From a virus: DNA of 64,000 nt. The translations under genes and the position numbers were made by a program. The DNA lies in IMG/VR virus record IMGVR_UViG_3300047496_000382; one strand, given 5' to 3'. Shown piece after piece: positions 10,801 through 59,462 of the stretch. Below the pieces are notes generated by a model. That model was not told where the DNA came from and did not search any database. It saw only the letters and a program-made list of their open reading frames with translations. Positions within the stretch are counted from its first letter, which is position 1, and each line of letters starts with the position of its first letter.

Positions 10801-11277
10801 GAGCACAATCGCCCCATTCTGCTTCACAGCCTGTCCCGCAGGCCCATTTAGGAAGCTCGCGGCGTTGGTCGCAAACCGTTGGTACGCCGCCGTGCCCGTC
10901 ACATCCGTGAACCCGGCAGTGCGCGAACCTGCAGCAGTTCCAAGCTCTTGCAGCGCCGCCTTTGCATTGTAGAGCGGCGACACGTCCTCCACCGGCAGGA
11001 CCTTCCTCCCGAGGGAATTCACCGCGTCGAGCAAACTCGAAATCGTTTGTGATTCAGCGGGGATGTCTGTCGTCAGCAGCCTGTTTGACCCCAAAAATAC
11101 AACGTAGAACGGCGCGTTGCCGTACAGGACGAAAACCCCGGCGGCAGCCTGTTGGACATCCGTGAAGGTAACGTCAGTTCGCAAAACCCCGAGCGTATCC
11201 AGGGGTCTAGCCACCGTAGACAGAACAATCTGCTCGACCGCTGCCTGAATCTCGTCGGGGGTGTAATTGGCTGTCAT
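7882..11277 (-). CDS. large virion structural protein (baseplate/tail-associated)
   Basis: 1131 aa, T/G/A/V-rich, AIVAGVNDTL and ADQVASDINAAL modules; adjacent to fibre genes. Confidence 0.55.
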   Translation of the reverse strand: MTANYTPDEIQAAVEQIVLSTVARPLDTLGVLRTDVTFTDVQQAAAGVFVLYGNAPFYVVFLGSNRLLTTDIPAESQTISSLLDAVNSLGRKVLPVEDVSPLYNAKAALQELGTAAGSRTAGFTDVTGTAAYQRFATNAASFLNGPAGQAVKQNGAIVLTPQQARAAIPGLMSQLTAQHAALVAKVQLLAGALDDYAGLNLPQLLATNVLNNAAALVGADADVLNSLSREDRLGYVRTAILNLLAAKSAVTTFGTFNPPTDFFALTGTGFGYSDANHKATPAQLVNGLMVGAFAIVAGVNDTLALAMDGRAPIAIQLATSPIAEFDGNQAEPFVIGDGSSPVPESGFPQANNNKFKLKVGNTTYVATLTSSGGATEAVAAGGDLSGLTYGPGGSLDGLTLNMKFGSLPFAVTFNAPADINAVVAQLNAPLQPLGVQAGLFFTSIFLQDVQHVGAKASQFTIVGGPAMAVLGFTAGTYTGGTPTRSADQVASDINAALVGLDVVAESFFNPLVFSGQVNIPAGLNPVVSLAFGGTDFVALGVQPGYSLQVTSGANTGYWPITAVTSTTLTIAGTTVLQGSAPCEVGPPNKFVRVRCTNPAVQVPAELALEVIGDDTPSKGSAQLLGMPVGVPSNCLLTTADTLVKDIKNKTSQTSSTTAVVPQVSPSTVFGAQVSGLPVRSNLSDALTVTVSEVQGAGAAVFALGTLTLTVTSIAYGGTASVGYAMVVRSGANLLQSYMLQTINGGTTAKALAVGDVLVFTGAGTNDGAMAFELGDTVSGFTKYATFNVSAGPNKGTYCIDSQTSPLDFVLQTPLPTVRAGADPVFMTGDFGWMDVVLTSLDTTTASRVTPSGNASDYIFGAPADAKATTPWFQLPSIPRGLQPGDLLQFYPTNYAVVGSEFLITSVDTTLKLIGVSPDVPVASGSWTFTPQPPPVARLRVGTMNDYSVYKTQLTAWLANTTQSPLFLQSLNRLINPLLANQNPTVAQLSTAANALIALFKQLTIAAATTYNGVGPLEGAVKGYTAEPVPAIDALIKSYIEKGSDRAVDLLLGGQFSAFFGLTVNNASYAGAFQDATRAVARNDLPVRKYSRPETQTGRLLGQSQSEDFEFTSSDITEGAQVDPPTGASNTA

Positions 11278-13050: not shown

Positions 13051-13443
13051 TCAAGACAAGAAACCCATGTGGTACACGCGCGTGATGTGCTGGCCCGTGA
13101 GCGACACGCGCTTCGGCGTGCCGCCCTCCGTGCCACGTGGAGCGCGTCCGCCGGCCAAGTACTTCGGCCACACGCAGCACTCGGAAGAAGGCGTGTCGTA
13201 CGAGCAGTACTCCAGCTTGGTGGCGAGGAGGTCCATCACGTAGTTGAGCGCCTTGTTCGCGGCGAGGTCAGCCTCGTTGTGAACGGGGTCGTTGATGAAG
13301 CAGCCTGCCGCGAGATGCAGCGCCTTACGCTGCTTGTCGGTGATGTCCGCGTCGGGGATGACGTAGAACTGCACCATGGCGGGGACATCTTCCCAGACGA
13401 GCAGCGTTGACGGGGCGGGCACAGGCACAGCAGCTCCAGACAT
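13051..13443 (-). CDS. hypothetical protein
   Basis: SD GGAGG; lies between promoter and terminator. Confidence 0.6.
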   Translation of the reverse strand: MSGAAVPVPAPSTLLVWEDVPAMVQFYVIPDADITDKQRKALHLAAGCFINDPVHNEADLAANKALNYVMDLLATKLEYCSYDTPSSECCVWPKYLAGGRAPRGTEGGTPKRVSLTGQHITRVYHMGFLS

Positions 13444-13539
13444 GATGAACCTCCAGGTAGGTAGAGCAGTCGAGGCCCCTCGTGGGGGCCTCGGCGGATT
13501 CGAACCGTCAGCACAGGCTGCTGTCGGCCGCGGTCATTG

Positions 13540-13569
13540 TTCTTATGCCTGAAGCACTCGATGAATTGC
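13540..13569 (-). promoter_or_regulatory. class I phage promoter
   Basis: GCAATT-N14-GGCATAAGAA. Confidence 0.75.
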
Positions 13570-18363: not shown

Positions 18364-19156
18364 TCTTCTTCTCCTCGGTTGTAGGTGATACACCGTCTTC
18401 GAGAGTCTTCAAGACCTTCCTGGCGCCGGCAATGCTTTCTTCCGAAGCACCGGCCAGCGTTGCGAAGGTGACTGCCGCCGCCCAGCCAGCCATGGCTGTC
18501 GAACGCAGCACGGCGGCCTCTGCATCGCGCAGGTTGCACTTGTACCGCTCATGGAGGAGCGGCTTGAAGACGTTGCACCCACAGGGCCCGGAGAGACCCT
18601 CACGAGTCTCGCAACGGAAGGACGCTGACGCCCCACCGACACGAATCAGCATGTCGCCACCGATGGGCTCGTTATAGCCGGGCGTTCGCTGAAGAACACC
18701 CTTCGCCAAGTGCCGAGTAGTACGCAGCTCCTCGGCCAGCTTCTCCATCGTGCGCATGTGCTCTACGAGGACGGCGACGATGCCCTCGTTGATGTCCGTG
18801 CGCGGTTCCTGGATTCGATAGCTGGGGTAGGGGTAGCCCTCCTTCGTGCTCGAGGTCCAGAACTCACCGGGCACCATCGCGCGCAGCTGCACCATCGGCA
18901 GCGCCCCGACGACGTAGATGTCGAGGATGTGGTTTCGCGCGTACTTCTCCAGCCACAGTCAGGAGTGGTCGACAGCGTAATAGAGCCCGTCGTGTACCGG
19001 CAGCTCGAGCACCTGCCCAACTGCGCGTACGAGCTCGTGGCAGCGTAGGCGTGTGGAGAGCTTCACCTCGTCGAGGTTGGCGATGAGCGAGTCAGCACAC
19101 CGCATGAGCTCCTTCTCCTCTTCCGAGAAGACCTCCACCTCGCTGTAACCCTTCAT
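18350..19156 (-). pseudogene. hypothetical gene with one in-frame TGA (18959-18961)
   Basis: ORFs 18959-19156 and 18350-18895 are in frame: VDHS*LWLEKYARNHILDIY. Confidence 0.5.
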
Positions 19157-19338
19157 GTGCCGGGCTTGCTCTCGGTGGGCGTCTGCGGCACGCGTACCTC
19201 ACCGACGTCACCCTGCTCGACCAGGTCGGTGATGGAGGCGTTGGTCTTGACCTGCTCCTTCGCCGCCTCTGCAGAGTCGGCCTCGACAGTCAGCGTGCCT
19301 GTAATGGTCAGAACGTAGTTCACGTCGAAGTGCGGCAT
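19153..19338 (-). CDS. small hypothetical protein
   Basis: SD AGGAGG; VEADSAEAAKEQV motif. Confidence 0.6.
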   Translation of the reverse strand: MPHFDVNYVLTITGTLTVEADSAEAAKEQVKTNASITDLVEQGDVGEVRVPQTPTESKPGT

Positions 19339-19544
19339 GACGCCTCCTTGTAGCGGTTGAAAGCACGACGGCCGAAGTAGACGGCTTCGCGCCCGAGCCA
19401 CATGCCCATCGTGATGGGCCAGGTGACCGCGATGCCGATGCCGGTGAAGAGCAGGTCAGTGCTCTGGTGTTCGAGCGCCTCGATGACGGCTTGCCCGGAG
19501 AGCGCGAGGACACCGCCGGCGTAGAGGATGAGGATGGTGGTCAT
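19320..19544 (-). CDS. small two-TM membrane protein
   Basis: Two hydrophobic segments. Confidence 0.55.
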   Translation of the reverse strand: MTTILILYAGGVLALSGQAVIEALEHQSTDLLFTGIGIAVTWPITMGMWLGREAVYFGRRAFNRYKEASCRTST

Positions 19545-38321: not shown

Positions 38322-38931
38322 GATAGGTGGCTCCCTTGGTGATGTGCGTGAGATTGATGAACAGCTCCATCGGCACCCCGCTGCCGACAGTCATTGCGTA
38401 CGCAGCCGCGGCCTCCCCGACAGCCAGACCCGATGTGCCGGGCCCGTACACGAGGATGAGACGCAACAGCACGCACACTTTGCCGAGCGTCTTCAGCGAT
38501 TGCTCGATAGCCACACCCTTGCGCTGGTTAGCAGAGAAGGGGTCGCGCTCTAACATCGCGAACTCCACCTGCTCCATCTGCTTGCGTCGTTCACTCTCCG
38601 CGAAGAGCTGGAGGAGGAAGTTGACGTGCCCGGCAGTCAGTACGCGGGGGCGAGCGAGTGGACTCCCAACGGTCACGGCGACGTGCTCGAAAATCAGAGC
38701 GACGCGACACGCGGAGTAGTCGGCGCCGCGCTGCTTCCCCTCTTCCCACAGTGCCTCGGCCTCAGAGTAGATGGTCGGCGGCGGGTCGGGGTCGTTCGGG
38801 TCTTCAAGACCAGAACGCGCAGAGCGCTGGAGGGCACGGTAGTAGCCCTCGTAGACAGGACATGTGTCGTCCAGAAGAACCTCCCGGAGGACAGAAACAT
38901 CCTCCAGGTCTCTTATACCCCTGCGCGTGAA
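38311..38931 (-). CDS. hypothetical protein, start codon unresolved
   Basis: Open frame extends 85 codons upstream of the track GTG with no ATG. Confidence 0.45.
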   Translation of the reverse strand, partial: FTRRGIRDLEDVSVLREVLLDDTCPVYEGYYRALQRSARSGLEDPNDPDPPPTIYSEAEALWEEGKQRGADYSACRVALIFEHVAVTVGSPLARPRVLTAGHVNFLLQLFAESERRKQMEQVEFAMLERDPFSANQRKGVAIEQSLKTLGKVCVLLRLILVYGPGTSGLAVGEAAAAYAMTVGSGVPMELFINLTHITKGATYHGR

Positions 38932-53595: not shown

Positions 53596-54234
53596 ATGCC
53601 CCGAAGAAAAGCCACGCCCGTTGCATCACCCCTCGTCGACAAGAACATGCTCACCATGAGCAACGGTCGCACCATCGCGTACTTCCTTCGCAACACTGAG
53701 ACAGCCGAATCACTGAAGGCCCTCGACCTGGCGGAGCTCAACGAACTCTGCGCCCTGCTCGACGGACTCTGGACCGAGTTCCAGCGACGCGGGCTAGGTC
53801 TGAGACCGTACGACTACCTGCAGCGCGACAAGGAGTACCTCATCAACCGCGCAGCACGTGAACTCAACTCCCTGCGTTGCATCATCGAGTACGGACAAGA
53901 CGTTCTCGGCGAGCGCATCGATGAGCTCGAGGAGAGGGTGCCGAAAGGACCCGTGCTCACCATCAATCTCGAAACAGTCAGTTACGAGCAGGCACTCGAA
54001 CTGGTGCGCGGTACCTACCAAGTCGGCGAGCAGACCGAAGAAGACACATCCTCCGCGCTGGTAGAGTCGGCCAGTCAAGTCAGCTTTCTGCAGCAGGACA
54101 TCACCGCCCACAAAGAGTGGCGCACCAAAGCGAAGACCGCGCTGCAGGCGCTCGTCGAGCTCATCGGACCGTACCCCGACGCGCAGAACTACTTGACGGA
54201 CGTTCTCGCTGCCGCACCCACGGAGGAAAGTTGA
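53596..54234 (+). CDS. coiled-coil hypothetical protein
   Basis: SD AGGAGG. Confidence 0.65.
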   Translation: MPRRKATPVASPLVDKNMLTMSNGRTIAYFLRNTETAESLKALDLAELNELCALLDGLWTEFQRRGLGLRPYDYLQRDKEYLINRAARELNSLRCIIEYGQDVLGERIDELEERVPKGPVLTINLETVSYEQALELVRGTYQVGEQTEEDTSSALVESASQVSFLQQDITAHKEWRTKAKTALQALVELIGPYPDAQNYLTDVLAAAPTEES

Positions 54235-54913: not shown

Positions 54914-55285
54914 GTGGACTTCTCCCCTCACGGCGACGCAGGCACGCCCGCTGCCAGCACGTTCTGCAACCCACAGGTGGAGTGGCTCTTCACGGAGCCG
55001 GTGGTGTTGGTCTGCGTAGAGTTGACGCCGGAATTTGGCTTCCTCTTCGACGAGGACATCTACACAGAGCTTGACGACTACCCGCCTGCATGCGGCAGCC
55101 GGTGTGCCTGCTCGAAGTGTTATGGGCGCTACGGCTTGGTGTCAGAAAAGCCCCTCACCACACGTCAGGACTTTCGTGCCCTACGCGCGGAGGAAGAGGC
55201 GCATGAGGAGTGGTCATTCAAGCGGCGCGTCCGGATGCCTTCTCGGCGACACCCGCCGAAGAAAGTGCTTCGCGACGTGGAGTGA
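54914..55285 (+). CDS. hypothetical protein
   Basis: Between promoter and terminator. Confidence 0.5.
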   Translation: MDFSPHGDAGTPAASTFCNPQVEWLFTEPVVLVCVELTPEFGFLFDEDIYTELDDYPPACGSRCACSKCYGRYGLVSEKPLTTRQDFRALRAEEEAHEEWSFKRRVRMPSRRHPPKKVLRDVE

Positions 55286-55287
55286 AA

Positions 55288-55318
55288 GGAAGGGCGCCTG
55301 CGGCCCTTCTTTTCTAGC
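55288..55318 (+). terminator. intrinsic terminator ending TTTTCTAGC
   Basis: GAAGGGC...GCCCTTC stem. Confidence 0.7.
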
Positions 55319-55326
55319 CCCTTCGT

Positions 55327-55356
55327 GCAATTTTGTCTGAGTTTCAGGCACAAGAA
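55327..55356 (+). promoter_or_regulatory. class I phage promoter
   Basis: GCAATT-N14-GGCACAAGAA. Confidence 0.75.
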
Positions 55357-55420
55357 GAGTAAGGGAAAGAACACTACCAGGGCGGTTCTGGTCTTGTTTC
55401 GGACCCGATGCGAGAGACCT

Positions 55421-55717
55421 ATGAGCGTTCTGTGTGAAGGGTGCCATCGGCACAATCACGGGCTCAGGCACCCGACACGAGTCGGTGCGCGCACGCTGCT
55501 GCTGTGCGCTTCGTGTGTAGTGCGCTGCCTTCTTCGTGCTGACAGCGCGCCGGCGCTGCCATGTGCCGTTCTCAAGGCGGCTGCGGTGCCTGCGTCGACG
55601 GCGCGGTTCCGCTGGTTCAGCACTGACCTCCCGGAGACGCGGCATCTCTACAACGAGAGCGGCGAGCCGCACCTGCGGCGTATCCATCGACCCATACGCA
55701 ACGGGAGGACTGAATGA
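55421..55717 (+). CDS. Zn-binding hypothetical protein
   Basis: CEGC and CASC. Confidence 0.5.
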   Translation: MSVLCEGCHRHNHGLRHPTRVGARTLLLCASCVVRCLLRADSAPALPCAVLKAAAVPASTARFRWFSTDLPETRHLYNESGEPHLRRIHRPIRNGRTE

Positions 55718-55839
55718 TTGCCGCCCATCCCGGTTGGTCAATGGTCGTCGCGGTCGCCATGATGTTCGGCGCCTCGGCCTACAACATCTGGCGATTACAC
55801 AAGCTCGAGCAGGCGGCCGAGCAGCGGAAGAAGAAGTAG
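55714..55839 (+). CDS. small single-TM protein (41 aa)
   Basis: SD GGGAGG; hydrophobic helix with basic tail. Confidence 0.55.
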   Translation: MIAAHPGWSMVVAVAMMFGASAYNIWRLHKLEQAAEQRKKK

Positions 55840-56576: not shown

Positions 56577-56834
56577 ATGATTCTCAGTCTGCTCGGCGGG
56601 GCTCCGATTCTTCGGGGGCTCGCCACGTTTCGCGACGTACTCAAGAAGGTCGAGAAGGCTGTCGTTCTGGTGAAGAGTGAACAGCCTGTTCTGCTTTCAC
56701 TCAACCTGGTCCTCCCTCGTGAAGAGATGGAGGCATTGCTCCGCGACCCGCGCGTGCGGCGTGGACTGGACAACGCAGAGGTCATGAAGGCGGAACTTCC
56801 GACCTGCCCGCAGTGTGGAAAATTCACCGGATGA
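56577..56834 (+). CDS. hypothetical protein with C-terminal CPQC
   Basis: SD AGGAGG. Confidence 0.55.
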   Translation: MILSLLGGAPILRGLATFRDVLKKVEKAVVLVKSEQPVLLSLNLVLPREEMEALLRDPRVRRGLDNAEVMKAELPTCPQCGKFTG

Positions 56835-56914
56835 CCAGGCACAAGAACAGTGGAGGTCGACATGGCCGACAAGGATGACGTGTACCTCCAGGCTGAACAG
56901 CTCGGCCTGGAAGT

Positions 56915-56944
56915 GCAAATCTCCACGAAAAGTGGGGATAAGAA
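56915..56944 (+). promoter_or_regulatory. class I phage promoter
   Basis: GCAAAT-N14-GGGATAAGAA. Confidence 0.7.
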
Positions 56945-56987
56945 CAATGGACGGTTCAACCCCCGTCCCACGAAGGAGAGCATCACC

Positions 56988-57398
56988 ATGAGCGCACGCG
57001 GCACCCACGCCACCCAGGAAACGCACGAAACCGCCACGCCCGCCGAGCAAGCTGTCGATGCCGCGGCTGGTCGCAATGAGCGACACGTCACGGAGGCCCG
57101 CTTCTCTCGCTTCGAGAACGAGGTGAGCTGCGACCACGCCAACCTCCACACCAAGGTCGACAGCATCGAGGGCGACGTGCGCCAACACGCCAGGCGCCTC
57201 GATGCTGTCGAGGGTCGCCTCGGCCTCGACCCCAAGAAGACGACGACGCGGACCGTCATCATAGCGCTTCTCAAGACCGCGGCCGTGGCGACGAGCTGGG
57301 CGCTCTTCACCGCAGGCGTCGCGCGCTACACGACGAAGAAGACGATGGCGTCGGCTGCCGCAGCTGCGGCGATTCCGATGCCGTCCGTCGGGGCGTGA
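56988..57398 (+). CDS. coiled-coil protein with C-terminal TM
   Basis: SD AAGGAG; heptads then a hydrophobic helix. Confidence 0.6.
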   Translation: MSARGTHATQETHETATPAEQAVDAAAGRNERHVTEARFSRFENEVSCDHANLHTKVDSIEGDVRQHARRLDAVEGRLGLDPKKTTTRTVIIALLKTAAVATSWALFTAGVARYTTKKTMASAAAAAAIPMPSVGA

Positions 57399-57420
57399 CC
57401 AAGACCGGCACGAAGAAGTT

Positions 57421-57461
57421 GAAGAGCGCCGCCCCTCACGGGGATGGCGTTTCTTCTTAGC
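57421..57461 (+). terminator. probable terminator ending TTCTTCTTAG
   Basis: CGCC.CCCC-TCAC-GGGG.GGCG hairpin. Confidence 0.55.
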
Positions 57462-57469
57462 CACCCAGA

Positions 57470-57499
57470 AGAAAAAGCCTTGGAATTACGGCATAAGAA
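57470..57499 (+). promoter_or_regulatory. class I phage promoter (weak upstream box)
   Basis: AGAAAA-N14-GGCATAAGAA. Confidence 0.55.
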
Positions 57500-57502
57500 G
57501 AT

Positions 57503-57567
57503 TGAAGGGTCGCCTCCTCCCTTCCAAGGTCGTTCCCTCCCGCCCGGGGGAGCGACCTTGTTTCTAG
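57503..57567 (+). ncRNA. candidate ~65-nt sRNA with anti-Shine-Dalgarno loop
   Basis: GAAGGG-UCGCCUCCU-CCCUUC hairpin, then a 15-bp terminator stem and UUUCUAG; no ORF. Confidence 0.5.
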
Positions 57568-57621
57568 CTCCTCATGCGGGTGACAGAAGTGAATCACCCC
57601 GTCGACTTGACAACTTTCTCC

Positions 57622-57655
57622 TTGCACCCATGCACTACTGTTCGTACAACAGTAG
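57622..57655 (+). promoter_or_regulatory. sigma70-like promoter overlapped by a palindromic operator
   Basis: TTGCAC-N17-TACAAC; CTACTGTT-cgtac-AACAGTAG at 57635-57655. Confidence 0.45.
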
Positions 57656-57672
57656 GCGAAAGGAGGACGTCC

Positions 57673-57951
57673 ATGTTCGACCCGGTCCTGTACAAGAACC
57701 CGCTTTTCGCGAACGCGGACGGGATGGTCCTCTTCTGCAAGGAGCTCTTGGAGAAGAAGGGCCTGACCACCGAAGCCACGAAACTGGCGGGGTACTACGG
57801 CATCAACGACGAGGAGACGGCACAAGCAGCACATGAGGCGCTCATGCACGTGCGCGTGCCCAACGACCGGAACATCCGGGAGTACATCAAACTCACCAAA
57901 GAGCTTCTCCTGAAGGCTGCGGGAACAGTACCGCTCCGACAAGCAAGCTGA
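57673..57951 (+). CDS. hypothetical protein
   Basis: SD AGGAGG. Confidence 0.65.
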   Translation: MFDPVLYKNPLFANADGMVLFCKELLEKKGLTTEATKLAGYYGINDEETAQAAHEALMHVRVPNDRNIREYIKLTKELLLKAAGTVPLRQAS

Positions 57952-57979
57952 AAAACACGCCCCTAGTGCGGAATAAGAG
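57950..57979 (+). promoter_or_regulatory. class I phage promoter (variant)
   Basis: GAAAAA-N14-GGAATAAGAG. Confidence 0.45.
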
Positions 57980-58023
57980 TTGTGATGACGTTCCTGTCAT
58001 CACCCGCGCTAGGAGGCGTGCAC

Positions 58024-58659
58024 ATGCGTTGCTTCACCGTTACCGATAGGCCTGTTTCAGGGCTCTACTACGACATGAATCCAGTACCGGCCCTCGCAGC
58101 CTGCAGAGGCTTCGACGTACAGCTGGACCCGGAGTTCGCGACTGAGATTGAAGTTCTCACCCACCTGGCATGGGATGAGGGCAAGCTGGAGTGGCCCAGC
58201 AAGTGGGCCTTGAAGTGGGCGACCCTAAACCAGCTGAAGGGTCGCGTGGTCTTGCAGAAGCAGTCGCCGGACCTCCGGCGAAAGAACCTGCAGGCACTGG
58301 TACGTCTGGACACGGCCGCGGGCATTGGCGGCACGGTTCGGTTGACCAGCTGTTTACGAGAGGAAGTGATGGTGCAGGGACGCGTGGTCTTGAAGGACCA
58401 GGTGTTCCCTCCACTGGGCGTGGCACCCCTGTGTGACGAAGCAACGGTGCGCGCCTTGCGTGAAGGCGTACCCGATGGTCTCAACGTGTACGTGATGATG
58501 AATCCTGGGTCGGCAGTGCGGATTCATCTCTCGGGCAGGCTCGAAGACCACCCGGCGACGCTGCAAGTGAAGTGGACGGGTGAGGACCTGCTGGTCATGC
58601 ACCCGCAGCAGTACGCAGCACGCCAGAAGACACCGCGGATGCAGTCCGCCGCGGCGTAG
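58024..58659 (+). CDS. hypothetical protein
   Basis: SD AGGAGG. Confidence 0.65.
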   Translation: MRCFTVTDRPVSGLYYDMNPVPALAACRGFDVQLDPEFATEIEVLTHLAWDEGKLEWPSKWALKWATLNQLKGRVVLQKQSPDLRRKNLQALVRLDTAAGIGGTVRLTSCLREEVMVQGRVVLKDQVFPPLGVAPLCDEATVRALREGVPDGLNVYVMMNPGSAVRIHLSGRLEDHPATLQVKWTGEDLLVMHPQQYAARQKTPRMQSAAA

Positions 58660-58663
58660 TAGT

Positions 58664-58695
58664 CGAGAGAAGGGCACGTTCGCCCTTTTCTCTAG
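58664..58695. terminator. bidirectional terminator between convergent genes
   Basis: GAGAAGGGC...GCCCTTTTCTC. Confidence 0.7.
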
Positions 58696-58865
58696 CCACT
58701 GAGGTGCTTCACGAGCTCCTCGAGCCGCTTCACCTGGAACACCCACCAGAAGAAGGTCTTCAGGATGGCGCGCTCGCTCCGAACGATGGGGTCGTTGCCT
58801 TTCGTCTGGAACCACTCGTCGAACTCATTGATGAGCGTGTTGACCTTCTCTTCTTGCTGCGACAT
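58692..58865 (-). CDS. small hypothetical protein (57 aa)
   Basis: Manual translation MSQQEEKVNTLINEFDEWF...; SD AGGAG. Confidence 0.65.
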   Translation of the reverse strand: MSQQEEKVNTLINEFDEWFQTKGNDPIVRSERAILKTFFWWVFQVKRLEELVKHLSG

Positions 58866-58891
58866 GACGGCTCCTACGCTACCTTCGGTCG

Positions 58892-59290
58892 ATGGTCCGC
58901 GTCGCCACGTTCGACGACATTCCCGTGCTCGTCGACATCGAGCAGCGTCTCTTCCCCCTCAACGCCATGAACGACACAATGCTCGAACGCGAGCTGGCGG
59001 TCGGTGGTGGGCTGGTCGTCGGCACCGTCCCCTGCGCCTACGCCTTGCTGCGCGACGACGGCGTGCGCCTCGACATCACGCGCCTCGGGGTTGTTCCGGA
59101 ACACCAGCGCAAGGGCTTCGGCGAGCTTCTTCTCGCTCACGTCGTAGCCCGAGGCCGCCGCACCATGCTGACGGTAGCCAAGAGCAACCGCGTCGCGCTC
59201 CGCCTCTACCTTCGCCATGGGTTCGAGGTCGTCGGCGAGCTCACCGAGGCGGCAGCTTGGCTGATGGAGCGGGGCGGTCCATCGCCGTGA
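58892..59290 (+). CDS. RimI-like GNAT acetyltransferase
   Basis: LGVVPEHQRKGFG (motif A); LTVAKSNRVALRLYLRHGF (motif B). Confidence 0.85.
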   Translation: MVRVATFDDIPVLVDIEQRLFPLNAMNDTMLERELAVGGGLVVGTVPCAYALLRDDGVRLDITRLGVVPEHQRKGFGELLLAHVVARGRRTMLTVAKSNRVALRLYLRHGFEVVGELTEAAAWLMERGGPSP

Positions 59291-59462
59291 TATTGTAGAC
59301 GGCGCCACAGCCGCCACACTTCATGACCGGCTTGCCATCAGGGCCCTGCGCCGGAGTTGCCAGTCGCTGGCACTTCGGACAACGCAGCCGTCCTGTTCCG
59401 CCTTCCGGCTGCTTGAGGATGGTGTTGCCCTTTAGGTCTCGAGTGCCGCGAATGGTCTTCAT
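59241..59462 (-). CDS. Zn-ribbon protein
   Basis: CPKC and CGGC; SD GGAGG. Confidence 0.6.
   Translation of the reverse strand: MKTIRGTRDLKGNTILKQPEGGTGRLRCPKCQRLATPAQGPDGKPVMKCGGCGAVYNITAMDRPAPSAKLPPR

Follow-up and report, generated by a model that had tools for sequence, protein, structure and literature searches.

A predicted small RNA gene with a CCUCC loop in a phage from a moss metagenome, and its candidate target

Known RNAs that pair with ribosome-binding sites

In the C-rich-loop small RNAs of Firmicutes (the hairpins of RNAIII, RsaE/RoxS, LhrC), the C-rich loops pair with G-rich Shine-Dalgarno (SD) regions and block initiation. The c4 RNA of phages P1 and P7 is processed from an operon transcript and makes use of two loops. 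To our knowledge, few phage-encoded regulatory RNAs have been characterised, and almost none of them comes from large uncultured phages of soil or moss. It has been described that c4 is a phage small RNA (sRNA) located upstream of its target, that it pairs around the ribosome-binding site of the target, and that the differences between the phages are matched in both partners (PMC12197685). The alpha-r14 or cuckoo family was defined by a motif present in each of 2-4 loops and by alphaproteobacterial neighbourhoods (PMC4615179), and in this family NfeR1 silences ntrB by an 8-nt anti-SD (aSD) pairing at the translation start region, which suffices (PMC10746234).

The window analysed here, 64,000 nucleotides long (IMG/VR record IMGVR_UViG_3300047496_000382), comes from a 184-kb contig of a moss metagenome. 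Its phage features are a gene for a collagen-like fibre, a sigma-like gene and a tmRNA of its own, and most of its proteins have no known family. The host may be a myxobacterium. At 57470-57567, on the + strand, a phage-type promoter box is followed by a 6-bp hairpin, a 15-bp hairpin and the tail UUUCUAG. The explanation that we consider most likely from the sequence is that this unit belongs to a real and new family of phage sRNAs, whose target would most likely be the SD of a downstream gene, named here gene B. In its full form, which we favour tentatively and with a confidence somewhat short of even, the unit would be a self-contained phage sRNA gene whose product occludes a ribosome-binding site, mainly that of gene B.

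By analogy with the described systems, the unit appears closest in layout to the c4 RNA of P1 and P7. In both cases a phage sRNA, here a predicted one, is encoded on the same strand as its candidate target and upstream of it, with pairing at the ribosome-binding site that is predicted in our case (PMC12197685), and in both cases the differences between related phages are matched in sRNA and target. Unlike c4, the unit has its own predicted promoter and terminator, a single loop and a seed directed to the SD core. As regards homology to c4, no similarity was found in sequence or in Rfam, which gave only weak matches at chance level.

The alpha-r14/cuckoo RNAs (NfeR1, CcsR1-4; RF02344) likewise have adjacent hairpins, variable stems and an exposed anti-SD motif (PMC4615179, PMC10746234). 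The loop in the window spells the cuckoo motif CCUCCUCCC, and its predicted pairing with gene B has the same size as the 8-nt pairing of NfeR1 with ntrB (PMC10746234). However, only hairpin 1 has the motif, with its last three C in the stem, while the loop of the second hairpin is CCGCCC, and the relatives of the unit keep just CCUCC. The unit is also phage-borne, in a non-alphaproteobacterial setting and with a phage sigma-type promoter; all its copies were found in metagenomic phage records of 106-184 kb and not in Rhizobiales or Rhodobacteraceae replicons. The Rfam model RF02344 (alpha-r14) was the only sRNA-type match at the unit, and it stayed below the gathering threshold (16.8 bits in the window against 58.8, E 0.25-0.5), with hairpin 1 unaligned or out of register; in the four relatives it gave no match at E <= 1. 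Membership of this family was thus discarded by motif, by Rfam threshold and by replicon, and the likeness looks like convergence. As an exact 9-mer, CCUCCUCCC has a single occurrence in the window, about the chance level; the weight of the observation comes from the signal context and the conservation, and not from the motif count.

The principle of a loop directed to an SD is also that of the C-rich-loop sRNAs (discussed as well in PMC4615179), which differ in being host-encoded and unrelated in sequence, and which usually regulate multiple targets and possess several redundant loops. Phage 5′-leader RNAs that work by anti-SD pairing or premature termination likewise have a promoter-proximal anti-SD hairpin and then a terminator upstream of a gene. 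Compared with them, the terminator of the unit is strong and lies 105 nt away from the next SD. Attenuators and riboswitch-like leaders are recognised by mutually exclusive terminator and antiterminator folds, and in the unit no antiterminator fold was seen in the scans described below.

Anatomy and conservation of the unit

A gap of 274 nt separates the start of gene A, the following gene, from the stop of the upstream gene (56862-57398). The upstream gene ends in its own terminator T1 (57427-57460, + strand), with a hairpin at 57427-57449 and the tail TTTCTTCTTAG. After it comes a class I phage promoter (57471-57499), formed by a GAAAAA box (57471-57476), a 13-nt spacer (57477-57489) and GGCATAAG (57490-57497), then AA; the element GGCATAAGAA is located at 57490-57499. 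Hairpin 1 (57504-57524) has the stem GAAGGG/CCCUUC, in which 57504-57509 are paired with 57519-57524, and its 9-nt loop, UCGCCUCCU (57510-57518), holds CCUCC at 57513-57517 and shows an unpaired probability of ~0.9. Directly adjoining hairpin 1 is the terminator T2 (57525-57568), a stem of 15 bp (57525-57539 with 57546-57560) including two G-U pairs, closed by the loop CCGCCC and followed by the tail TTTCTAGC, where TTTCTAG occupies 57561-57567 and contributes three U only. The class I box, the hairpin with its loop, the 15-bp stem and UUUCUAG had been pointed out in the initial annotation, and each of them was found where it had placed them.

Taking the 5′ end from the position of the box and the 3′ end from T2, the predicted small RNA has ~62-70 nt and runs over 57503-57567 on the + strand. 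With hairpin 1 at its predicted 5′ end, this RNA would be compact and nuclease-resistant. The 71-nt unit had a folding energy of -35.8 kcal/mol (z = -4.2), matched by no shuffle. The same annotation had stated that there was no ORF on either strand. This does not hold literally, as two mechanical ORFs cross the unit, 57444-57836 (+) and 57457-57942 (-), but its substance stands: codon-usage scores were negative in all six frames over 57340-57640, as expected of non-coding DNA, and the relatives share no small ORF. In the window's lineage only, the 5′ halves of hairpin 1 and T2 resemble a tandem duplication, with a 14-nt direct repeat at 57508-57541 (GGTCGCCTCCTCCC and GGTCGTTCCCTCCC, 79% identical, 20 nt apart).

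Both signals of the unit belong to classes that are recurrent in the phage, and for this reason it reads as a promoter, ~65 nt and a terminator. The class I motif, GGnAyAAG(A/G) with a CAAnT-like or GAAAA-like box ~15 nt upstream, recurs across the window and is typically placed 6-9 nt before GGAGG and ~20-25 nt before ATG. When the window and four related phage genomes were counted together (five genomes), about half of the class I boxes lay 1-70 nt upstream of a called start, against ~5% expected by position. The other recurrent class is a GC-rich hairpin with a U-rich run and CTAG(C), that is, terminators of the TTCTAGC type, usually with a class I promoter directly after them; within this class T2 has the longest stem and the shortest U run. 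The succession of class I box, aSD hairpin and terminator in non-coding DNA occurs a single time per genome, at the unit. A scan of 56800-58900 with the sigma-70 consensus found no promoter, and CTTGACA was not a recurrent promoter motif. Judging by these signals, the non-coding stretch would possess its own promoter and its own intrinsic terminator.

A moss metatranscriptome, filed twice, contained small contigs 100% identical to the phage, covering 53919-54105 and 56664-57409 only, and it follows that the phage or its RNA was present in the moss sample. Assembled metatranscriptome contigs cannot show a small RNA, nor can strand or level be read from them, and the end at 57409 is uninformative on the unit.

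The relatives were reached through a conserved 389-aa protein encoded 24 kb away and a 220-aa neighbour. Five related IMG/VR phage records of 106-183 kb have a conserved gene order around the locus (a count that excludes G004/G005 and G003), and four of the five carry the unit at the syntenic site, after the T1 of the upstream gene and ahead of gene A: G002 (L018), G009 (L041), G001 (L002) and G010 (L043), the last one close to G001. Together with the window this makes five copies in four lineages, in which the neighbouring proteins are 23-67% identical. In all the relatives the T1 hairpin and its tail precede the unit and both promoter boxes are kept, with a spacer that varies. The first hairpin begins 6-8 nt after the box in the five copies, and CCUCC in its apical loop is the only constant (the loops are UCGCCUCCU, UGUGCCUCC, CCUCCU and CCCUCC); the stems have no sequence in common between lineages. 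The exposed seed is thus conserved while the stems vary. The equivalents of T2 are GC-rich stems of 14-17 bp, unrelated in sequence, with U-rich tails, which in G009 is a canonical tail of 8 U. Between G001 and G010, T2 shows one compensatory change from A-U to G-C and two wobble-compatible changes, and none that is disruptive. The units measure 71-127 nt, with folding z-scores from -3.1 to -4.9. An extra hairpin is present at the unit site of G002, and two tRNA genes lie near the locus in G010 (L043 8122-8304).

In G004/G005, a fifth lineage, the unit is absent: a GIY-YIG nuclease ORF of 94 aa (L016/L017 1180-1464; Pfam E 2e-17) stands exactly where the unit and the spacer are found in the others, which may be a replacement of the homing-endonuclease type. 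Considering its retention in four lineages and its absence from this one, the element is conserved and yet dispensable.

Several other searches gave no relatives. The proteins of 58024-58659 and of the upstream 56850-57398 had none beyond the source contig in sets of 5.8 billion and 1.84 billion proteins, and pattern scans of IMG/VR with the proteins of both flanking genes, as well as an exact-sequence scan of IMG/VR for hairpin 1, returned nothing. No IMG/VR relative was found for a 1204-aa neighbour. The gene A alignment had no match in G003 (74% complete), nor in JGI metagenomes, IMG/VR or GTDB genomes, and the 220-aa neighbour had none in GTDB or by tblastn against GenBank phages.

Complementarity between the loop and gene B

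Gene A (57673-57951, + strand) encodes 92 aa with no assigned function, and three homologues with 52-57% identity were found on short Logan contigs. It is preceded by a spacer or leader of 105 nt (57568-57672, + strand) with a conserved TTGACA at 57607-57612 that has no conserved -10; no lineage showed a class I box in this interval after T2. The SD of gene A, GAAAGGAGGAC, is invariant in all lineages. In its leader an anti-SD-like tract (57613-57628) pairs with the SD (57655-57670) across an 8-bp hairpin (57635-57655), and these motifs recur in G002 and G009.

The candidate target, gene B (58024-58659, + strand; 211 aa), is the next-but-one gene after the unit. Its control region (57970-58023, + strand) is formed by the class I box GGAATAAG (57970-57977), a 5′ hairpin (57982-58003) and the SD AGGAGGCG (58011-58018), a layout that recurs in the relatives. 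No relative of gene B was found in Pfam, PHROG or PDB. Its structure model had a mean pLDDT of 53, and only the beta-rich C-terminal half, residues 88-194, was usable, at moderate confidence; no fold match was obtained with this half.

In every unit-bearing lineage the loop is a perfect complement, over 7-8 nt, of the SD of its own gene B. The loop CGCCUCCU of the window corresponds to AGGAGGCG, the loop GUGCCUCC of G002 to GGAGGCAC, the loop CUCCUCCU of G009 to AGGAGGAG, and the loop CCUCCAG of G001 and G010 to CUGGAGG. When the four loops were compared with the four gene B leaders, the cognate pair gave the longest match in every row of the matrix, with an estimated chance of ~0.004. In G010 the match is kept despite an insertion of 680 nt between genes A and B, whereas in the lineage that has no unit (G004/G005) the SD of gene B is weaker, UAGGAGC.

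For each loop, the 15 nt around its centre were then compared with all called translation start regions, and these were ranked. In the order of match length, gene B was number 4 of 105, 5 of 216, 13 of 238 and 6 of 226 in the four lineages (Fisher p 7e-4 with all genes included, 7e-3 when only strong-SD genes are taken), and among the 18 orthologue groups common to the four lineages it was the best by three orders of magnitude. The hits at the top of the ranking differ between genomes and are not orthologous, also between G001 and G002. The four lineages have the ancestral AGGAGG core in common, which limits their statistical independence. The predicted pairing is short. Accessibility-corrected seed energies of loop and gene B, from -4 to -8 kcal/mol, were modest, although comparable with the 8-nt pairing of NfeR1 and ntrB (PMC10746234), and by duplex energy the cognate pairs were not always the best, a picture less clean than that of match length. 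These seeds were used instead of RNAcofold dimers, in which loop-to-strand kissing is not modelled and which gave inconsistent pictures. With four lineages and p values of ~1e-3 to 1e-2, the conserved and co-varying complementarity to the translation start of gene B is suggestive. Related phages had been proposed in the initial annotation as a place to look for covariation, and there the architecture and the CCUCC loop are kept, the stems vary and the flanks of the gene B SD are matched.

Other targets were considered and left aside. By energy, 59241-59462 (GGAGGAGGC) was the best target of the window, and it showed no co-variation in its orthologues. The complement of the loop, AGGAGGCG, is indeed present, as had been noted earlier, both at the SD of 58024-58659 and at that of 19153-19338 (19341-19348, minus strand), and AGGAGGC does precede the collagen-like and alpha-CTD-like genes. 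The proposal of an SD-targeting repressor built on these sites finds support at the first gene, whose SD keeps the lineage-specific complementarity to the loop in all relatives, and none at 19153-19338, which has no orthologue in the relatives. A scan of all intergenic DNA for loop-exposed CCUCC yielded mostly the antisense of SDs and was dropped.

Apart from the unit, a tract within the spacer of the class I promoter of gene B itself is complementary to the SD of this gene and its 5′ flank: CUCCUAG, CUCCUCCUAG and CCUCCAG among the relatives G001, G002 and G009, with a weaker CCCCUAG in the window (window 57970-58023; L018 1790-1850; G009 ~10830-10908; L002 1775-1847). Given this tract in cis, SD-complementary sequences are common around gene B, a point against the sRNA reading. 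According to this arrangement, the SD of gene B would be masked in cis on read-through transcripts coming from gene A, and would not be masked on those from the proximal promoter.

Considering that the flanks of the loop change together with the ribosome-binding site of gene B, the predicted sRNA probably throttles the translation of this gene. Transcription, driven by the phage-sigma (class I) promoter, would begin a few bases upstream of hairpin 1 and would end at the strong hairpin T2, giving a compact RNA of ~65 nt. Its only notable open stretch would be the loop of hairpin 1 with CCUCC, which would base-pair in trans with SD sequences and block the binding of the 30S subunit. The preferred target would be the SD of gene B (58011-58018, AGGAGGCG), 450 nt downstream and served by its own class I promoter, so that the sRNA would cap or delay the translation of gene B.

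Alternative explanations and implications

An unlikely alternative, but one that deserves attention, is a leader or attenuator acting in cis. The promoter at 57490 would serve gene A and, by read-through, gene B; T2 would be regulated or leaky, the anti-SD hairpin would mask SDs on its own read-through mRNA, and the short RNA would be a by-product. This would account for the lack of a class I box after T2 for gene A in all lineages, when other cassettes of the window place a promoter right after each terminator, and for the short T2 tail of the window. It also agrees with the frequent presence, in this phage group, of anti-SD tracts upstream of SDs in cis, as in 57613-57628 with the gene A SD, in the promoter spacer of gene B and in the leader 38886-38905. 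Nevertheless, minimum free energy, centroid and repeat scans found no antiterminator pairing that competes with the arms of T2, and in the fold of the full leader both hairpin 1 and T2 are closed and another tract masks the gene A SD. The tails of T2 are on a par with those of T1, the terminator behind a real gene, and that of G009 is the canonical 8-U tail. Moreover, the loop and the SD of gene B still match in G010, where the insertion (~680 nt, 103118-103798) separates genes A and B. The reading as an sRNA and the reading as a cis leader are not mutually exclusive.

The initial annotation had gone further and proposed that the SD-less virion genes would escape such a repressor of SD-led mRNAs, which could act in this way as an early-to-late switch. 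Taken as a global anti-SD RNA that would repress all SD-led mRNAs, of the phage or of the host, and spare the leaderless virion mRNAs, this model seems improbable to us, although the conserved core is the generic CCUCC, AGGAGGC is present at several SDs, and ~40% of the called genes of the window lack an SD, several of them with a TAnnnT box 6-8 nt before the ATG. The flanks of the loop differ by lineage and follow the SD flanks of one gene, a match that a sponge does not need and that points to a specific neighbouring target; taken together with the loss of the unit in G004/G005, where the GIY-YIG gene is found, it disfavours a generic essential sponge. A single small gene with a single exposed site would also face an unfavourable stoichiometry, given the ribosome pool and dozens of mRNAs. 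The same lineage-by-lineage match with the gene B SD is left unexplained if the loop is taken to imitate the 3′ end of the 16S rRNA, as a decoy that would bind a nuclease, a toxin or an initiation factor, rather than as a seed for pairing with mRNA. CCUCC is the 16S 3′-end sequence and a stable two-hairpin body would be suitable for this role, but nothing specific favours it, and its probability is very small. Just as little probability is assigned to an emptied cassette or insulator left after gene loss, with no RNA function and with an incidental hairpin 1. The phage is made of promoter-gene-terminator cassettes, and the site is a hotspot of change, with GIY-YIG in G004/G005, the extra hairpin in G002 and the insertion in G010. 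In such a remnant decay would be expected, yet the boxes, the CCUCC loop, the position of hairpin 1 and the long terminator stem were kept across four lineages whose neighbouring proteins are only 23-67% identical.

Returning to the sRNA directed to gene B, a wider interpretation would be that translation is gated by a dedicated sRNA, through its 16S-like CCUCC loop, in a clade of ~170-185 kb phages with a putative RNA polymerase and sigma factor of their own, either as a lineage-specific lock and key with one gene or as a broad shift of ribosomes; we consider this rather unlikely. In the first case, one gene would be tightly controlled, perhaps a toxic or host-takeover gene, and the RNA could discriminate between co-infecting relatives, as c4 does for P1 and P7. 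In the second, the many virion mRNAs without an SD would gain ribosomes at the expense of the SD-led accessory mRNAs. Here a compact predicted sRNA comes together with a predicted seed and a predicted target nearby, and the four lineages supply natural compensatory variants, which makes the case directly testable by reporter fusions and cross-lineage swaps. If confirmed, a phage with putative transcription machinery of its own would also tune translation by RNA, and gene B would be flagged as a product that the phage must keep in check.

Class I promoters also head other stretches of the window. On the minus strand, the promoter at 13549 opens a leader of ~90 nt (13443-13549) before the gene 13051-13443. 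In this leader are an 8-bp GC hairpin and GGTTCGAATCC, a motif that resembles the T-loop of a tRNA; no tRNA was called there by ARAGORN or Rfam. Another promoter-proximal SD/anti-SD structure lies at 38886-38919, likewise on the minus strand: after a class I box, GGAGGA and UCCUCC pair in a hairpin, and a second GGGAGG comes next. Finally, the 428 nt of 55285-55714, located between terminators at 55312 and 55868, have their own class I promoter (55347) and, as the only candidate ORF, one of 41 aa (55714-55839), and may be another small or non-coding unit.
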